This document shows positions 9,867-18,178 of a DNA stretch of 64,000 nucleotides, one piece after another. The notes below the pieces were generated by a model. It had not been told where the DNA came from, made no database searches, and saw only the letters and a program-made list of their open reading frames with translations. How positions within the stretch are numbered: the stretch's first letter is position 1; every line of letters starts with the position of its first letter. Source of the DNA: Polaribacter sp. (GTDB lineage Bacteria > Bacteroidota > Bacteroidia > Flavobacteriales > Flavobacteriaceae); assembly GCA_965261035.1 (NCBI GenBank), contig OZ253439.1:1337070-1401069 (forward strand). The letters are read 5' to 3'. The position numbers and the translations under genes are program-made.

Positions 9867-10493
9867 CTAATAAGCATATACACAGATAAATTCTTCAAAT
9901 TCTATAAAATAAATATTATGTGTAGATTCTTTGCCGCCATAATTAATTTTTCCAGTAGTTTTTCTATCATCAAGAAAAAATTCATCAATGTGAATATGGT
10001 CCAAAAACAAGAGATTTTTTTTTCCATAAACTTTATATAAAGACTCTTTTGCTCCCCAAATAACAGTTAGTTTGGTTACCAGAGCGTTATGATTGGCTAT
10101 TGTTCTATATTCTTGAATTAGCGTGAATTTATATGCTATTTTTACGATTTTGTCACGTTGCTTTTCAATATCAATTCCAACAGGAACATTATCAGAAATG
10201 ATAATTCCAGAAAAAGTAAACGAGTGCGTAATAGAAATATGTTTTCCATCTTTTAGATGAGGTTTTCCAAATTCATCGTATATCAAATCAGAATCTTTAT
10301 AGCCAGCAATTTTCAGCAAATGTCTTATGCTTAAAAATCCTCTTTGGTGGAGTTCGGATTTCATTCCATCTAAACGTTTTTGGTGTTTTTCGGTTAATTT
10401 AATTCCTACAGACAAATCATTTAAAGACTCTTCAATCTTCCAAATCAGTACTTTAGTAGTTTTATTAACAGTTATGGTCTTGTAAATAGGCAT
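9867..10493 (-). CDS. 4'-phosphopantetheinyl transferase family protein
   Basis: GKPHL, SITHS, VGIDIE, WGAKESLYK. Confidence 0.92.
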   Translation of the reverse strand: MPIYKTITVNKTTKVLIWKIEESLNDLSVGIKLTEKHQKRLDGMKSELHQRGFLSIRHLLKIAGYKDSDLIYDEFGKPHLKDGKHISITHSFTFSGIIISDNVPVGIDIEKQRDKIVKIAYKFTLIQEYRTIANHNALVTKLTVIWGAKESLYKVYGKKNLLFLDHIHIDEFFLDDRKTTGKINYGGKESTHNIYFIEFEEFICVYAY

Positions 10494-10577
10494 AATTTTA
10501 AAAAGATATTACGTAGCTTTGCAACCGAAATTATTGATACAATAATAGAGGAATAACAAACAAAGATACAAAAAATT

Positions 10578-11894
10578 ATGAGTATAAAAGTTGATAAATA
10601 CATTCCGTTTAAAGTTAAAGATATTTCTTTGGCTGATTGGGGAAGAAAAGAGATAGAATTGGCAGAAGCAGAAATGCCGGGGTTAATGTCTTTAAGAGAA
10701 GAATACAAAAACGAGCAGCCGCTTAAAGGAGCAAGAATTGCAGGATGTTTGCATATGACCATTCAAACGGCAGTGCTGATTGAAACATTAAAAGATTTAG
10801 GGGCAGAAGTTACTTGGAGTTCGTGTAATATTTTTTCTACACAAGACCAAGCCGCTGCTGCAATTGCTGCTACCGGAACTCCTGTATATGCTTGGAAAGG
10901 ATTGAGTGATGAAGAATTTGACTGGTGTATAGAACAAACTTTATTCTTTGGCGAAGACAAAAAACCGCTAAATATGATTTTAGATGACGGTGGAGATTTG
11001 ACCAATATAGTATTAGACCGTTATCCTGAATTAGCTGATGGAATTAATGGACTAAGTGAAGAAACTACAACTGGAGTTCATCGTCTATACGACAGGGTAA
11101 AAGCAGGAACGTTGCCAATTCCAGCAATTAATATAAATGATTCTGTTACAAAATCTAAATTTGATAATAAATACGGATGTAGAGAAAGTGCTGTAGATGC
11201 TATCCGTAGAGCAACAGATGTTATGTTGGCTGGAAAACGTGTAATTGTTTGCGGTTATGGAGATGTTGGAAAAGGAACTGCGGCTTCTTTTAAAGGAACA
11301 GGCTCCATAGTTACTGTAACAGAAATAGACCCAATATGTGCGTTGCAAGCTGCAATGGACGGATTTGAAGTAAAAAAATTAGAAACTGTCGTTGGAAATG
11401 CTGATATAATTATCACAACTACTGGAAATAAAGATATTGTCCAAGCTCGTCATTTTGAAGCGATGAAAGACAAAGCAATAGTTTGTAATATTGGACATTT
11501 TGACAATGAAATAGACGTAGCTTGGCTGAATGATAATCACGGAAGTACAAAAATAGAAATAAAACCTCAAGTTGATAAATATACCGTTAATGGAAACGAT
11601 ATTATCCTGTTAGCAGAAGGTCGTTTGGTGAATTTGGGTTGTGCAACCGGTCATCCGAGTTTTGTGATGAGTAACTCTTTTACAAATCAAACTTTGGCAC
11701 AAATAGAATTGTGGACAAATCGTGATGCTTATAAAAATGAAGTTTATATGTTGCCAAAACATTTAGACGAAAAAGTAGCAAAATTACATTTAGCCAAAAT
11801 TGGCGTTGAGCTGACAGAATTACGTAAAGACCAAGCAGAATATATTGGCGTTACCATAAAAGGTCCATTTAAACCGGAATATTATAGGTACTAA
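10578..11894 (+). CDS. ahcY: Adenosylhomocysteinase
   Basis: [36 protein letters not shown]. Confidence 0.98.
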
Positions 11895-11964
11895 AATTAG
11901 AAATTAAAAAGTTAAAAAACTAATAATCAGCAAAACCTGATAATTTCAGTCAATAACAAAAAAA

Positions 11965-12633
11965 ATGACACAAAACATAAAAACAAATTATCAGGTAAAA
12001 TCTAAAGAGCGAGTTACTGACCACGGAGAAGTATTTACCTCTGAACGTGAAGTAAACGCTATGTTAGATTTGGTAAAACAGGAAACAGAGCGTATAGACT
12101 CTCGTTTTTTAGAACCAGCCTGTGGAACTGGAAATTTTTTAGTTGAAATACTCAGGCGAAAACTTATAATTGTTGAAAGTAGGTATAAAAAAAGCCAACC
12201 AGAATATGAACGAAATGCTGTAATTGCCATTTCCAGTATTTACGGAATTGACCTGTTAGAAGATAATATAAAAGAGTGCAGACAAAGATTATTTGAGATT
12301 TTTGATAAACAATACACCTCTCTTTATAAAGAGAACTGTAAAGAAGAATGCAGAATTAGTGTAAAATTTATTCTTAAAAAAAATATATTAAGAGGTGATG
12401 CCTTAACTCTTAAAACAGTTAGCAATAACGATGAACCAATCGTGTTTTCCGAATGGTCTGCTGTTAATGGCAATATGATAAAACGAAGAGATTATACTAT
12501 GGCAAACTTATTAGAAAGCCAGCCAGTAGAAGGTTTAAACCTTTTCTCTGATTTGGGCGACAAAGCATTTATTCCAACGCCTGTACGTGAATTTAAGCTG
12601 ATGCACTTTTTGAAATTAACAGATGATGCTTAA
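11965..12633 (+). CDS. Short amino-methyltransferase-like protein (motifs X, I, II, III; no NPPY)
   Basis: GEVFT, FLEPACGTGNFL, IYGIDL, GDAL; no motif IV in 222 aa. Confidence 0.85.
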   Translation: MTQNIKTNYQVKSKERVTDHGEVFTSEREVNAMLDLVKQETERIDSRFLEPACGTGNFLVEILRRKLIIVESRYKKSQPEYERNAVIAISSIYGIDLLEDNIKECRQRLFEIFDKQYTSLYKENCKEECRISVKFILKKNILRGDALTLKTVSNNDEPIVFSEWSAVNGNMIKRRDYTMANLLESQPVEGLNLFSDLGDKAFIPTPVREFKLMHFLKLTDDA

Positions 12634-13194
12634 AACAAATTACAACCCAGATATATTAACTTGTCTTGCTAATTTAAGTAACGATGAGGTTTTTACTCCT
12701 CCAAAATTGGTAAATGATATATTAGATATACTGCCTCAAAAACTCTTCACAAATAAAAATACAACCTTTTTAGACCCTGTTAGTAAATCTGGAGTGTTTC
12801 TAAGAGAAATTGCCAAACGATTAATGGAGGGTTTGGAAAGCGAAATACCCGACAAACAAGAACGAGTTAACCATATATTTAAAAACCAGATATTTGGTAT
12901 TGCAATAACAGAATTAACCTCTTTACTCTCTCGTAGAAGTGTATATTGCTCCAAAACTGCAAACGGAAAATACTCCGTTTGCGAAACCTTTGACAACAAA
13001 CAAGGAAACATAATTTTTAACCGAACAAAACATACTTGGAAAAACAATAAATGTACTTATTGCAGTGCAAGCAAAGAGGTATATAACAGAGATAAAAAAT
13101 TAGAAACCTATGCCTATCAGTTTATACATACTGATAAACCTAAAAATATTTTTAATATGAAATTTGACGTAATTATTGGTAACCCGCCTTATCA
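12610..13194 (+). repeat. Near-identical repeat of 14265..14729 (5' part of methylase paralogs)
   Basis: Offset 1655 bp before and 1535 bp after a 120-bp indel. Confidence 0.92.
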
Positions 13195-14125
13195 GTTAAG
13201 TACAGGGGGGTCTGGAAGACAAGCAAAACCAATCTATCAAAAATTTATTAAACAAGCCCAAAAGTTAAACCCAAGATATTTAACGATGATTATACCTGCA
13301 AGATGGTATTCAGGAGGTTTTGGGTTAAATACATTTAGATATGAAATGCTTAATGACAAACGGATTAAATATTTAGTTGATTTCGATAATGCATCAGCGG
13401 TATTTCCTGGTGTCGATATTGCAGGAGGTGTTTGTTATTTTCTTTGGGACAAAAATTATAATGGCGATTGTATTGTTAACAATATTGACGAAGGAGATAT
13501 AAAATCTTCAAAAAGACCACTAAATGAGTTTTCAGTCTTCATCCGTAGGTCAGAATCAATTTCTATTCTACGCAAGATTTTTAAAAAGCATAAGGCTTCA
13601 GACGGATTCCTATACAATAGGGTGAACTCTATTGGTTCATTTGGTTTACCCACAAATTATAAGCCTACAAATAAAGGTGTACCTTGTCAATTTATACAAC
13701 GCATAGGTCTAAAATATGCAAAGCCAGCTGACGTTTTAGACAAGAATAGTATTATTAAAAAATGGAAATTATTAATACCTAAAGCACCTATCGCTGGTCA
13801 GACAGATTTCTCAAAGCCAATAACAATATATCATGCAAACAATACAATAATTATTAAACCAGGAGTTGCGTGTACCGATTCTTGGATTACTGCTGGGTCT
13901 TTTGATACAGAAGATGAAGTTGTCTCTTATAGAACCTATTTTTTTACTAAAATAATTCGATTTTTAATTCTTCAAACAGTTATATCTCAAGATATTAATA
14001 AAAGAAATTTTTTATTTGTACCTGATATTGGATTATATAAAGGAATTTTTACAGATGAAATTCTTAGAAAAAAATGGAATATTACGGAAGAAGAGTGGAA
14101 ATTTATTGACTCTAAAATCAAGTAA
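12623..14125 (+). CDS. Eco57I-like gamma-class adenine methyltransferase with specificity region, variant A
   Basis: DEVFTP, FLDPVSKSGVFL, IIGNPPYQ, IIPARWY; 11-nt overlap with the upstream gene. Confidence 0.88.
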   Translation: MMLKTNYNPDILTCLANLSNDEVFTPPKLVNDILDILPQKLFTNKNTTFLDPVSKSGVFLREIAKRLMEGLESEIPDKQERVNHIFKNQIFGIAITELTSLLSRRSVYCSKTANGKYSVCETFDNKQGNIIFNRTKHTWKNNKCTYCSASKEVYNRDKKLETYAYQFIHTDKPKNIFNMKFDVIIGNPPYQLSTGGSGRQAKPIYQKFIKQAQKLNPRYLTMIIPARWYSGGFGLNTFRYEMLNDKRIKYLVDFDNASAVFPGVDIAGGVCYFLWDKNYNGDCIVNNIDEGDIKSSKRPLNEFSVFIRRSESISILRKIFKKHKASDGFLYNRVNSIGSFGLPTNYKPTNKGVPCQFIQRIGLKYAKPADVLDKNSIIKKWKLLIPKAPIAGQTDFSKPITIYHANNTIIIKPGVACTDSWITAGSFDTEDEVVSYRTYFFTKIIRFLILQTVISQDINKRNFLFVPDIGLYKGIFTDEILRKKWNITEEEWKFIDSKIK

Positions 14126-14127
14126 TT

Positions 14128-14264
14128 ATGAGTAAGCAAAAATTAAATTCTACCTTAAATAAAGATTTGTTTGATGAGATTAAGTTTATAGAATCCATGA
14201 TTCGCCCAATGAAATTATAATATAAGTAATAAGTTTTTTCCACAACGCCCAAAAGCAAAGCTAA
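14128..14264 (+). pseudogene. Junction relic: 30-aa chimeric ORF ending IRPMKL plus a decayed copy of the nuclease-helicase 5' end
   Basis: MSKQKLNSTLNKDLFDEIKFIESMIRPMKL* (14128..14220); about 14199..14259 matches about 15649..15709 with ATG changed to ATA. Confidence 0.75.
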
Positions 14265-14277
14265 TTGAAATTAACAG

Positions 14278-15669
14278 ATGATGCTTAAAACAAATTACAA
14301 CCCAGATATATTAACTTGTCTTGCTAATTTAAGTAACGATGAGGTTTTTACTCCTCCAAAATTGGTAAATGATATATTAGATATACTGCCTCAAAAACTC
14401 TTCACAAATAAAAATACAACCTTTTTAGACCCTGTTAGTAAATATGGAGTGTTTCTAAGAGAAATTGCCAAACGATTAATGGAGGGTTTGGAAAGCAAAA
14501 TACCCGACAAACAAGAACGAGTTAACCATATATTTAAAAACCAGATATTTGGTATTGCAATAACAGAATTAACCTCTTTACTCTCTCGTAGAAGTGTATA
14601 TTGCTCCAAAACTGCAAACGGAAAATACTCCGTTTGCGAAACCTATGCCTATCAGTTTATACATACAGATAAACCTAAAAATATTTTTAATATGAAATTT
14701 GATGTAATTATTGGTAACCCGCCTTATCAAATGAGTGATGGGGGTGGTAGAGACTCAGGTGCAATCTCTCTTTACCATAAGTTTGTTCAACAAGCAAAAA
14801 AATTAAACCCAAGATATTTATCTATGATTATTCCTGCCCGCTGGTATTCTGGAGGTAAAGGTTTGAGTGATTTTAGAAAGGAAATGCTTAATGACAAAAG
14901 AATGGCTGAGATTCATGACTTCCCTGAAACATCTGATTGTTTTCCTAGACTAAACATTAGAGGCGGTGTCTGTTATTTTCTTTGGGACAAAAAACATAAT
15001 TCAGATTGTAAGGTTACAAACTATAAATCAGGGTTAAATATATCTAGGATAACTCGCCCTTTATTAGAGGTAAATGTTGATATTTTTATACGATACAATA
15101 GAGCTATAAGTATTTTGAGAAAAGTGAAAAAACTTAGCGAACCAACGTACTCAAAAATCGTTAGTTCTAGAAAACCTTTTGGAATACAATCAAATTTCAC
15201 AGATTTTAGTAACAAACAAACATCTGATAATAAAATTAAGATATTTAAAGTTGGTGGCATTGGATTTACAAATGAAGCTAATATAATTAATGGGAAAGAG
15301 CTAACAGATAAGATTAAAGTATTAGTATCAAAAGCAAGTCCAGGCGGGGATGATTTTCCTCACAAGATTATAAGCTCTCCGATTATAGCTAAACCTAAAT
15401 CTTGTTGTACAGAAACCTATTTAGTTGTTGATGTTGTTTTGAATTTTACGCAGGCAAAGAACTTATGTAATTATATGTCTACAAGTTTTTTTAGATTTAT
15501 GATGTCTCTTGTAAAAAACACGCAGAATATTTCCAAAAGTGTTTTTGAATTTGTCCCTATACAAAACCTTGACGAAGAGTGGTCTGACAAAAAGTTATAT
15601 ACCAAATACAATATAACTAAAGATGAACAAAACTTTATTGACACTCTAATTCGCCCAATGAAATTATAA
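14278..15669 (+). CDS. Eco57I-like adenine methyltransferase paralog, variant B (40-aa in-frame deletion, different specificity region)
   Basis: N-terminus nearly identical to variant A; NPPY present; C-terminal half divergent. Confidence 0.85.
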   Translation: MMLKTNYNPDILTCLANLSNDEVFTPPKLVNDILDILPQKLFTNKNTTFLDPVSKYGVFLREIAKRLMEGLESKIPDKQERVNHIFKNQIFGIAITELTSLLSRRSVYCSKTANGKYSVCETYAYQFIHTDKPKNIFNMKFDVIIGNPPYQMSDGGGRDSGAISLYHKFVQQAKKLNPRYLSMIIPARWYSGGKGLSDFRKEMLNDKRMAEIHDFPETSDCFPRLNIRGGVCYFLWDKKHNSDCKVTNYKSGLNISRITRPLLEVNVDIFIRYNRAISILRKVKKLSEPTYSKIVSSRKPFGIQSNFTDFSNKQTSDNKIKIFKVGGIGFTNEANIINGKELTDKIKVLVSKASPGGDDFPHKIISSPIIAKPKSCCTETYLVVDVVLNFTQAKNLCNYMSTSFFRFMMSLVKNTQNISKSVFEFVPIQNLDEEWSDKKLYTKYNITKDEQNFIDTLIRPMKL

Positions 15670-15670
15670 T

Positions 15671-18178
15671 ATGAGTAACAAATTTTTTCCACAACGCCCA
15701 GAGGCAAATCCAACAATTTATGCTTATAAAATTCTTAACACTTCAAGTCATAAGGATTTGCTAAAAGTGGGTTTTACAACTCGTACAGCCAAAGAACGTG
15801 TAGCAGAACAACTGCAAACAAGCGGTTTATCCTATAAAATAGTTTTTGAAGAACCTGCTATAAGAAACGATGGCAGTACCTTTACAGACCGTGATGTTCA
15901 CAAAATTTTACGTAAAAAAGGCATAAAAAACCCAGATGGTGAGTGGTTTAAATGTTCGGTTAAAGACGTTAAATCTGCAATTCTTTCAGTAAAAAACGGA
16001 GAACTTAACGAGGAAAACAGAACACTCAATTTTAAAATGCGACCAGAGCAAGAAGAAGCAGTAGATAGGGTTATTGCTTATTTTAACAGTTATAAAAAAG
16101 AAAACCCCAACAAAACACCTCACTTTTTATGGAATGCTAAAATGCGTTTTGGTAAAACCTTTGCTGCCTATCAATTAGCAAAAAAGATGGGCTGGACTAA
16201 AGTTTTGGTACTTACCTTTAAGCCTGCTGTTCAAAGTGCTTGGCAAGAAGATTTATCATCGCATATAGATTTTGAAGGCTGGCAATTTATCTCTAAAGGA
16301 GGTTTAACTTATGAAGAAGCAAATAAAAAAAAGCCTTTTGTTTGTTTTGGTTCATTTCAAAATTATTTAGGCAGAAATAAATCAACAAAAGGAATTAAAA
16401 CCAAAAATGAATGGGTTCATGCCACTCATTGGGATTGTGTAGTGTTTGACGAATATCATTATGGATCTTGGCGAGAAAAAGCAAAAGAACTTTTTGAGGC
16501 GGAAGACAAAAAAGAGATAAAATTCGCAACAGGAGAAGGAGAGGGAATAGATTATTTTGACGAAGAAGAAATACCAATTACAACTGACGGATTTTTATAT
16601 TTATCAGGAACACCTTTTAGAGCAATTAATTCGGGAGAGTTTATAGAAGAGCAGATTTTTAACTGGACATACTCTGACGAACAAAAAGCCAAAGAGAATT
16701 GGGAAGGTGAAAATAATCCTTATCTAACCCTGCCAAGAATGGTAATGCTAACCTATCAATTACCAGATTCAATTATAGAAATTGCATCGGAAGGAGAATA
16801 CAATGAGTTTGATTTGAATCAGTTCTTTAAAGCAAATGGAGAAGGGCAAGGTGCAAAATTTGAACTTGAAAGCGAAGTGCAAAAATGGTTAAATCTAATA
16901 AGAGGTGGTTTTAGAGAAACAACTTTAGATAACCTAAGATTAGGGGCAAAAAAACCGCCAATGCCATTTTCACATATTGAGTTATTAAACGTACTCACTC
17001 ATACTTTTTGGTTTTTACCAAGTGTAGCATCTTGCTATGCTATGAAAAACCTAATGAAACAACGACAAAATATCTTTTACCACGATTATAAGATAATTGT
17101 TGCCGCAGGTACTGCCGCGGGTAATGGGGTTGAAGCATTACCACCAGTTTTAAATGCAATGGATAACCCTTTAAAATCTAAAACTATTACATTATCGTGC
17201 GGTAAACTCACAACAGGTGTTTCTGTTAAACCTTGGACAGGAATCTTTATGTTACGAAACTCATCAAGTCCAGAAACATATTTTCAAGCAGCATTTCGAG
17301 TACAAACACCTTGGACAATTAAAAATCCGGATAGTAAATCTCCAAACAAAGAAGAAATCATAAAAAACGAATGCTATGTTTTTGATTTTGCTCCAAATAG
17401 AGCCTTAGGTCAAGTTGCAGAATACAGTTGTCGTTTAAATGTAAACGAATTAAACCCAGAGAAAAAAGTTGCTGAATTTATTCATTTTTTACCAATACTT
17501 GCATACGATGGCAGCTCAATGAAACAAATATATGCGGGTGATGTTTTAGATATTGCAATGAGCGGAACTTCTGCTACATTATTAGCAAGACGCTGGGAAA
17601 GTGCCTTGCTTGTAAATGTTGATAATGCTACCCTTGCCCGTTTAATGAGCAATCAACAAGCATTAGACGCTTTAATGAGTATAGAAGGATTCAGAATGCT
17701 AAATCAAGACATAGAAACCATAATTAATAAATCAGAATCAGTTAAAAAGGCAAAGAAAGAAGCCAATGATGAAGAATTTACGAAAAAGGAGAAGAAAGAA
17801 CTATCTAATGAAGAAAAGGAATACAAAAGTTTAAGAAAACAAATTCAAGATAAATTAATAAAGTTTGCTACAAGAATTCCCGTTTTTATGTATCTAACAG
17901 ACCACAGAGAAAGAAGCCTAAATGATATTATTACTCAGTTAGAACCCGGACTTTTTAAAAAGGTAACTGCTTTAAACGTAAAAGATTTTGAGTTACTTGT
18001 AAGTTTGGGAGTGTTTAATAGTGGTTTAATGAATGACGCAGTGTATAAATTCAAACGCTATGAGGACACTAGTCTTGAATATATTGGAATAAACAAACAC
18101 GAAGGGGAAGGCGTAGGGCTTTACGATACCGTATTAAGTCCTTATGATTATTCGGAGAGCTTTGAAAATAAGAAATAG
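15671..18178 (+). CDS. GIY-YIG/T5orf172 nuclease fused to SF2 (restriction-type) helicase
   Basis: IYAY...LLKVGFT..R...EWF; Walker A AKMRFGKT; Walker B FDEYH; LSGTP; QAAFRVQ. Confidence 0.85.
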   Translation: MSNKFFPQRPEANPTIYAYKILNTSSHKDLLKVGFTTRTAKERVAEQLQTSGLSYKIVFEEPAIRNDGSTFTDRDVHKILRKKGIKNPDGEWFKCSVKDVKSAILSVKNGELNEENRTLNFKMRPEQEEAVDRVIAYFNSYKKENPNKTPHFLWNAKMRFGKTFAAYQLAKKMGWTKVLVLTFKPAVQSAWQEDLSSHIDFEGWQFISKGGLTYEEANKKKPFVCFGSFQNYLGRNKSTKGIKTKNEWVHATHWDCVVFDEYHYGSWREKAKELFEAEDKKEIKFATGEGEGIDYFDEEEIPITTDGFLYLSGTPFRAINSGEFIEEQIFNWTYSDEQKAKENWEGENNPYLTLPRMVMLTYQLPDSIIEIASEGEYNEFDLNQFFKANGEGQGAKFELESEVQKWLNLIRGGFRETTLDNLRLGAKKPPMPFSHIELLNVLTHTFWFLPSVASCYAMKNLMKQRQNIFYHDYKIIVAAGTAAGNGVEALPPVLNAMDNPLKSKTITLSCGKLTTGVSVKPWTGIFMLRNSSSPETYFQAAFRVQTPWTIKNPDSKSPNKEEIIKNECYVFDFAPNRALGQVAEYSCRLNVNELNPEKKVAEFIHFLPILAYDGSSMKQIYAGDVLDIAMSGTSATLLARRWESALLVNVDNATLARLMSNQQALDALMSIEGFRMLNQDIETIINKSESVKKAKKEANDEEFTKKEKKELSNEEKEYKSLRKQIQDKLIKFATRIPVFMYLTDHRERSLNDIITQLEPGLFKKVTALNVKDFELLVSLGVFNSGLMNDAVYKFKRYEDTSLEYIGINKHEGEGVGLYDTVLSPYDYSESFENKK

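Follow-up and report, generated by a model that had tools for sequence, protein, structure and literature searches.

What does it mean when a restriction-modification (R-M)-like system carries two methylase genes in tandem, alike in their first parts and strongly diverged thereafter? The question is raised by a 64,000-nucleotide (nt) stretch of Polaribacter sp. DNA (assembly GCA_965261035.1, contig OZ253439.1, positions 1,337,070-1,401,069 of the forward strand), referred to here as the window, within which all coordinates are given. Four co-oriented genes lie there between ahcY and der: a short methylase-like gene (S), methylases A and B, and a T5orf172-helicase gene (H). An initial annotation of the DNA proposed that the pair is a reservoir from which a crossover could switch specificity in one direction without a recombinase, or else a snapshot of specificity exchange between strains. 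We favor, with a probability of about 0.65, a reading in which the locus preserves the traces of repeated replacement of the methylase C-terminal half and is not a programmed switch. The exchanged half of the methylase (M) would consist of motifs V-VIII and the DNA-recognition domain, in what is otherwise a three-gene R-M-like system (S-M-H); the N-terminal ~190 codons of M, near-constant family-wide, would provide the homologous anchor, with crossovers resolving at the NPPY codons and the other end of the incoming DNA joining illegitimately. The four genes, with lengths in amino acids (aa), are as follows.

11965..12633, + strand: S, a short methylase-like gene of 222 aa that has motif X and motif I (EPACGTGNF) but lacks NPPY.
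12623..14125, + strand: methylase A, a full-length Eco57I-family enzyme of 500 aa in which motif I is typical of the family and the conserved Cys/His segment is present.
14278..15669, + strand: methylase B, 463 aa, with a third recognition half, a 40-aa deletion, and Tyr56 in motif I (TAT, 14443-14445).
15671..18178, + strand: H, 835 aa, with a T5orf172 (GIY-YIG-like) domain and a ResIII helicase (Pfam).

A repeat search and global alignment resolve the region into two direct tandem units, 12610-14264 and 14265-15713, that run from the tail of S through a methylase to the head of the helicase, just as the initial annotation had described. The duplication junction is at 14264|14265, and each unit closes with a methylase tail and 43 nt of helicase head, the two unit ends (14173-14264 and 15622-15713) being 80% identical. 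The parts of the duplication are these.

12610..14264, + strand: duplicated unit 1, containing the S tail, methylase A and relic tails.
12610-12622 and again 14265-14277, + strand: the last 13 nt of S, TTGAAATTAACAG, which open each unit.
12610..12982 (copy 1) and 14265-14637 (copy 2), + strand: 5' repeat block of 373 nt, with two mismatches, at 12789 and 12842.
12983..13102, + strand: 120-nt segment without counterpart in B, flanked by GAAACCT direct repeats at 12983 and 13103.
13103..13194 versus 14638-14729, + strand: 92-nt shared block ending at NPPYQ, with two mismatches, at 13132 and 13168.

The near-identity of the 5' parts, previously put at roughly 580 bp, is genuine, but it consists of 373 + 92 nt, broken by the 120 nt absent from B, which encode 40 aa corresponding to the H..W..C..C part of a C..C..H.W..CxxC motif. 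Similarly, the divergence placed after GVCYFLWDK is strong only there (39-55% nucleotide identity), but it begins at 13195, immediately following NPPYQ, at 65-79% identity per 100 nt. The catalytic NPPY (motif IV) occurs as GNPPYQ in A, in B, and in the third allele described below. At the protein level A and B are 54% identical overall; of the C-part residues 120/297 (40%) agree, and of those in the N part 149/152.

The course of events at this locus can be approached by comparison of four independently assembled haplotypes, namely the window and three haplotypes from ENA metagenome contigs (L088/L089, L090/L091, and L093). The first two of these contig sets share the S-A-B-H order of the window, whereas L093, from a strain that is 99.6% identical and from the same sample as L090, has the variant order S-C-B-H. 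Allele C (P0121, 501 aa), which came to light when only residues 1-192 of methylase A counted toward the search score, is 100% identical to A over those residues. L093 matches the window over 11957-13198 with three single-nucleotide polymorphisms (SNPs), all in S, and from 14173 onward at 99.6%, so that the allele boundaries are sharp (13198|13199 and 14172|14173). The strain-variable segment and the remnants within and behind it are listed here.

13199..14172, + strand: strain-variable segment with the body of allele A, its stop, and junction debris; 974 nt, versus the 882-nt C body in L093.
14126..14144, + strand: donor helicase start, TT + ATGAGTAAGCAAAAATT, the 19 nt after the A stop, of which 17 nt (14128-14144) are helicase.
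14173..14220, + strand: unused allele C tail, DEIKFIESMIRPMKL*, which is the C coding 3' end in L093 (P0121), with one SNP at 14196.
14222..14264, + strand: decayed helicase head (ATA AGT AAT AAG TTTTTTCCACAACGCCC...), within the stretch that is 80% identical to 15622-15713, the latter containing the start of H.

The spacing and the sequence type that follow the A stop match the M-stop/H-start arrangement of A-type loci, as in L007 (TAA TT ATGAGT). Because the C tail is non-coding in the window but coding in L093, a C-like allele must have been present before A arrived; the helicase-head relic followed by an S tail in turn appears to mark how C came to lie upstream of B. Judged from the junction sequences, A entered by a clean crossover on its left, where the conserved block ends (NPPY), and on its right the DNA was joined illegitimately, with small indels. 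The initial annotation's alternative of an exchange of specificity among strains is thus well supported, with L093 carrying C and the window retaining its unused tail. We also note that 14128-14220 forms a 30-aa chimeric frame, MSKQKLNSTLNKDLFDEIKFIESMIRPMKL, in which the donor helicase start is fused to the C relic tail; it is probably meaningless.

These relics can be accommodated by a history of three steps. We infer that a C fragment carrying the 13-nt S tail and the 43-nt helicase head integrated upstream of a resident B, either as a circularized piece with one crossover in the 5' block or by unequal exchange between sister chromosomes, which would give S-C-(helicase head|S tail)-B-H. B would then have lost 120 nt between the GAAACCT repeats, a deletion common to all of the sampled strains. 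The third step is shown by the comparison of strains: in one lineage A replaced the C body, bringing its own stop and 17 nt of donor helicase start and leaving the C tail unused.

Both the putative ancestral and derived alleles are still to be found together. We examined five public runs from three studies (X1-X5) as Logan contigs rather than reads, which flatten depth, pop bubbles, and drop rare variants. In X2, X4, and X5 a 1034-nt A contig and a 942-nt contig bearing the C substitutions both continue from one 61-nt contig (13138-13198) of single-copy depth, and the A and C depths add up to that of the flank, with 2743 + 500 versus 3290 in X2, 20.7 + 23.7 versus 42 in X4, and 7.58 + 16.6 versus 24.7 in X5; A and C are also both present in X3. 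The linked L093-type SNP at 15489 has a share of 590/3317 in X2, similar to that of the C body, and this correspondence indicates mixtures of strains and not switching within a clone. Within-clone A/C switching was rejected for this reason and because the window's own genome (one 2.76-Mb contig) contains no further M-like sequence and no silent cassette. The 'SNPs' seen at full depth in X4 result from contig bubble popping and are unusable as an argument for a single background. Allele A itself may have moved recently, as the window and the L090 strain have no differences over 10021-14195 (4,175 nt) in a setting of 0.37% divergence on both sides (P ~2e-7), which suggests a recombination tract carrying ahcY, S, and allele A between lineages.

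The L093 strain departs from the window upstream of the system as well, with an extra 2.57-kb segment (L093 4762-7330, GC content 26%) between ahcY and S, corresponding to window positions 11893-11954; loose ends at 11890 in the runs match this segment. The protein encoded there (760 aa) has membrane helices at its N terminus; it matched nothing in Pfam or PADLOC, and the other loci fetched contain no relative.

If the post-NPPY half is exchanged at this locus, it is reasonable to ask whether the same is true of the family. Where loci have enough flank the usual architecture is S, one M of ~495-520 aa, and then H, with S upstream of M in most other loci with sufficient upstream flank. H has relatives in many bacterial phyla and some archaea (at least 586 of 598 pattern-matched stretches confirmed, in one-genome-per-species data), with 71-78% identity in the best 80 of the at least 586 loci, an unusually high conservation for such a spread of phyla, and more than 8000 M homologues were found. 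The S-M-H trio sits in defense islands beside type I R-M, ThsB-TIR, caspase-like, and GmrSD genes. No second M-like gene was seen in any of the 65 other loci that have an M (0/65), and the further contexts checked were likewise single, so we reject the idea that two methylases (for instance with a separate enzyme for each strand where the site is asymmetric) are the normal architecture; P0162 and P0195, considered as partial tandem copies, proved to be cut by a contig end in one case and a frameshifted single M in the other. Among 214 full-length homologues, identity up to NPPYQ is uncorrelated with that of the recognition domain (r = 0.03), and many pairs have 97-100% identical N parts with 25-50% identity in the recognition domain and ~60-70% in the stretch of motifs V-VIII; those pairs with the same N part and different recognition halves that we checked are single-M loci on separate contigs. 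A, B, and C conform to this pattern, sharing 149-192 identical N-part residues with C parts that are 40-47% identical. Only recombination can produce identical N parts joined to recognition halves at 25% identity.

The predicted structure is in accord with this division. An AlphaFold (AF2) model of A has a mean confidence (pLDDT) of 77, with values above 88 in the C half and low confidence in the N part, and its best Foldseek matches are CamA (E 1e-12, TM ~0.5), BrxX/PglX, M.TaqI, and BpuSI; on the strength of this model, the fold is that of an N6-adenine methylase with a C-terminal DNA-recognition domain. Residues 90-131 of M (the motif I loop, in the N-terminal half) model poorly alone, and S has a canonical motif I, which would be consistent with joint action of S and M. 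S matches Pfam MmeI_Mtase with 32.4 bits in its N-terminal part only (the first 120 model positions), and A (M, 500 aa) scores 20.3 bits on the same model, under the cut-off of 27. No family for M or H was found in NCBIfam, and a sequence search of PDB gave no hit to M and nothing above noise for H. Methylase A is 63% identical to the single M of G041.

Several features of B suggest that it is no longer an ordinary member of this family. The 40-aa segment, which has the conserved motif YCSK..NGKYS.C...H.W..GKC.YC, is kept in 216/216 full-length homologues, B being the sole exception of 217, and a Tyr in DPVSK[S/T]G of motif I occurs in the window's B only, of the same number of sequences. A and C both combine the Cys/His segment with the family-typical motif I (DPVSK[S/T]GVFL), which B does not. 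The match of B to PF07669 scores 99.3 bits and skips part of the model, compared with 124.8 bits for A (cut-off 25.3). Among three strains the ratio of non-synonymous to synonymous changes is 9:5 in B and 9:5 (including a nonsense change) in H, versus 5:16 in ahcY and der, and the difference between B and H together and these housekeeping genes is significant by Fisher test (p = 0.009). In the 5' block, copy 1 is invariant among three strains while copy 2 has 2, 1, and 6 private changes, which fits relaxed constraint on the B block with occasional gene conversion from copy 1. On the sequence evidence, B would most probably be a relic with impaired catalysis and relaxed constraint.

Two observations concern H. 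The L090 strain, which is abundant (contig labeled 493x), has a C-to-T change at window position 17705 (L090 locus 11741) that gives Q679* and removes the last 157 aa of H, and in L093 the gene has six non-synonymous and no synonymous changes. These sequence differences raise the possibility that the species is losing its restriction arm.

There are other ways in which a tandem of this kind could be explained. The samples do hold mixed strains, and the tandem might therefore have been produced by an assembler stitching two strain alleles together, an outcome that the initial annotation had named as grounds for abandoning its interpretation. The same structure is however present in independent ENA contigs and in all five runs: the A-specific 120-nt segment, the B deletion junction, and the duplication junction are each found in the Logan contigs of X1-X5, and single contigs span 14264|14265 in these runs and in three other assemblies. 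Moreover, the shared 5' block has ~2x the depth of the flank in X1, X2, and X4 and ~1.6x in X5, and the successive depths in X1 (2.64 / 5.55 / 3 / 6 / 2.9 / 3 / 3.1) form a clean 1:2:1:2:1:1:1 pattern, such that we regard an artefact as ruled out for practical purposes. A tandem that is real could be one in which both methylases are active and kept, either providing different target sets for the helicase-nuclease or with B as an extra or orphan methylase. In keeping with this, the B frame (463 aa) is open in four haplotypes and retains NPPY and motifs V-VIII, B meets H at a canonical stop-T-ATG junction, no terminator-like site was found between A and B, and in one tiny, possible RNA run a small contig spans the B-H junction. 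Nonetheless, B alone of 217 sequences is without the 40-aa Cys/His segment and in the window has its unique motif I Tyr, the excess of non-synonymous change suggests relaxed constraint, and no other locus of the 65 has two methylases; we therefore consider dual specificity unlikely.

The reservoir of the initial annotation treats B as a silent specificity donor, from which RecA-mediated crossover or gene conversion in the 5' blocks would rebuild a full-length enzyme with B specificity; if true, an R-M-like system would behave as an orphan-module array of the Rhs/contact-dependent inhibition (CDI) kind, with old specificities stored and reactivated without a recombinase. The sequence requirements for this are present, in that the copies share exact direct-repeat runs of 179, 147, 52, 35, and 26 nt, strain-private differences in the 5' part of copy 2 suggest that the copies exchange sequence, and a crossover in 13103..13194 / 14638..14729 does yield the full-length enzyme that had been predicted (12623-13194 + 14730-15669, an intact 503-aa frame regaining the Cys/His segment). 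But comparison of strains, proposed as a check, shows that it is the specificity alleles that differ (A versus C) and not the copy number, there being no collapsed allele in the four haplotypes or five runs. In X2 (~3000x) no contig joins the copy-1 SNP 13168C to the B-type 13195A, copy-1-specific contigs are at flank-level depth, and no joints of at least 1% share cross 14100-15800. More generally, the X2-X5 contigs contain no rearranged joints of at least 1% share and no recombinant SNP combinations, with limited sensitivity, since these are contigs and not reads and no new 31-mers arise when a crossover falls within the 373-nt block. The population variation that is seen (A versus C) came from outside DNA and not from B, it tracks strain SNPs, and the genome has no silent cassettes elsewhere; if B is inactive, a switch to its specificity would also expose unmethylated B sites. 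A one-way switch is thus formally possible but, given these findings and the lesions in B, improbable, and on present evidence this is not a new kind of switch.

We therefore return to the interpretation of successive replacements, which has its own difficulties. The right junction of the A replacement is not clean, with indels in 14146-14172 relative to C. The order of the first two steps and the mechanism of the first are proposals, and the 214 homologues that make up the modularity sample were picked by similarity to the query. Motif I of B is intact (Ser) in two strains, L090 and L093, and B is an open frame in all four haplotypes, although the strains are only 0.3-0.4% apart and this is weak evidence. 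Finally, the depths in X3 (38.8 / 29.3 / 17.6 / 14.9 / 48.8) do not fit the expected ratio and are not fully explained; a deletion form was considered for this run and rejected. Strain SNPs at 14859 and 14878 account in part for the odd depths and for a contig break at 14879.

If these replacements have occurred as we propose, the locus would provide a base-pair-resolved natural case of specificity turnover in an R-M-type defense system, with the 'before' (C) and 'after' (A) alleles both still circulating in the same communities. The post-NPPY half of the widespread S-M-H family would then behave as a freely exchangeable module, which would be useful both for predicting or engineering specificity and for reading strain-level phage-host dynamics.

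The individual components of this process have precedents. Exchange of target-recognition domain (TRD) alleles, or 'domain movement', is known in R-M methyltransferases of Helicobacter pylori and others (PMC3983042, PMC3077401, PMC3467074), and as in those systems the recognition part can be exchanged while the catalytic or scaffold part stays constant, through homologous recombination in conserved sequence, and strains differ in specificity. Here, however, homology is at the 5' side only, with a 3' join that is illegitimate and unused tails left behind; what is swapped extends from NPPY and takes in motifs V-VIII, a complete displaced gene has been retained in tandem, and the host is an S-M-H system. 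The combination of one homologous end and one illegitimate end is that of homology-facilitated illegitimate recombination (PMC3240628), and the A-for-C exchange resembles it in having a left edge that is sharp within the conserved block and a messy right edge with donor flank, although the mechanism in this instance is inferred from junction anatomy only.

Orphan Rhs and CdiA-CT modules form sequential displacement arrays, from which orphans can be activated. Orphan activation is the same idea as the deletion switch of the initial annotation. Arrays of this kind are also described for type VI secretion system (T6SS) effector-immunity displacement in Vibrio cholerae (PMC5361080). The likeness is that incoming alleles use a conserved 5' anchor and that old alleles or 3' remnants accumulate downstream, and in the window a conserved 5' block precedes a variable 3' module and there are remnants at 14128-14144, 14173-14220, and 14222-14264. 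The displaced module B departs from the array pattern in keeping its full 5' end and start codon. The known arrays hold toxin tips and immunity genes, and their retained old genes are clearly beneficial, whereas what persists in the window is an entire methylase gene that carries an internal deletion, and activation was not observed.

Type I hsdS shufflons and type III mod phasevarions switch reversibly, by means of a recombinase acting on inverted repeats or through simple-sequence repeats. They too change methylation specificity at the level of the population, but the repeats here are direct, the island has no recombinase gene among the neighbors, and the variation is between strains. Nor is the system a type III R-M system (Mod/Res) in its composition, as M is a gamma-class Eco57I-type enzyme with a C-terminal recognition domain and not a beta-class enzyme with a central TRD, and in H the ResIII helicase is accompanied by an N-terminal T5orf172 as the nuclease-like domain, in place of a C-terminal PD-(D/E)xK. 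By domain content the closest named cluster is DnmA-YeeB-YeeC of Bacillus subtilis and Vibrio crassostreae, with an N6-adenine methylase homologous to MmeI (DnmA), a superfamily 2 (SF2) helicase, and a T5orf172 protein (PMC9973331). The two have in common an operon of methylase, SF2 helicase, and T5orf172, and defense-island contexts, but here there is a ~500-aa Eco57I-type M with a separate 222-aa MmeI_Mtase-like S, and T5orf172 is fused to the helicase. Recognition-domain exchange and downstream relics are each known separately; what is new here is their occurrence together in an S-M-H system whose ancestral and derived alleles still circulate side by side.

The remaining observations concern the surroundings of the genes and of the family. 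The neighbors in the island are uvrA, acpS, ahcY, der, and a polyprenyl synthase gene, and the S stop overlaps the start of methylase A. A sigma-70 promoter scan of the locus did no better than on shuffled sequence, the sigma-70 model being ill-suited to Bacteroidota. Among the other loci, five (L033, L043, L062, L079, and L096) have 1-3 kb inserted between M and H; the insert at 2916-3527 of L096 is an NYN-domain gene, and these inserts may be accessory genes or insertions. Decay of M is not rare, with a frameshift splitting the single M in some metagenome contigs, namely L095 1237-2756 (for example into 294 + 212 aa), L018, and L029. In X2, X3, and X5, low-depth contigs at 13277-13307 / 14191-14211 come from a GC-richer homologous system of another organism; they align to the conserved blocks and give rise to a spurious joint that skips 883.

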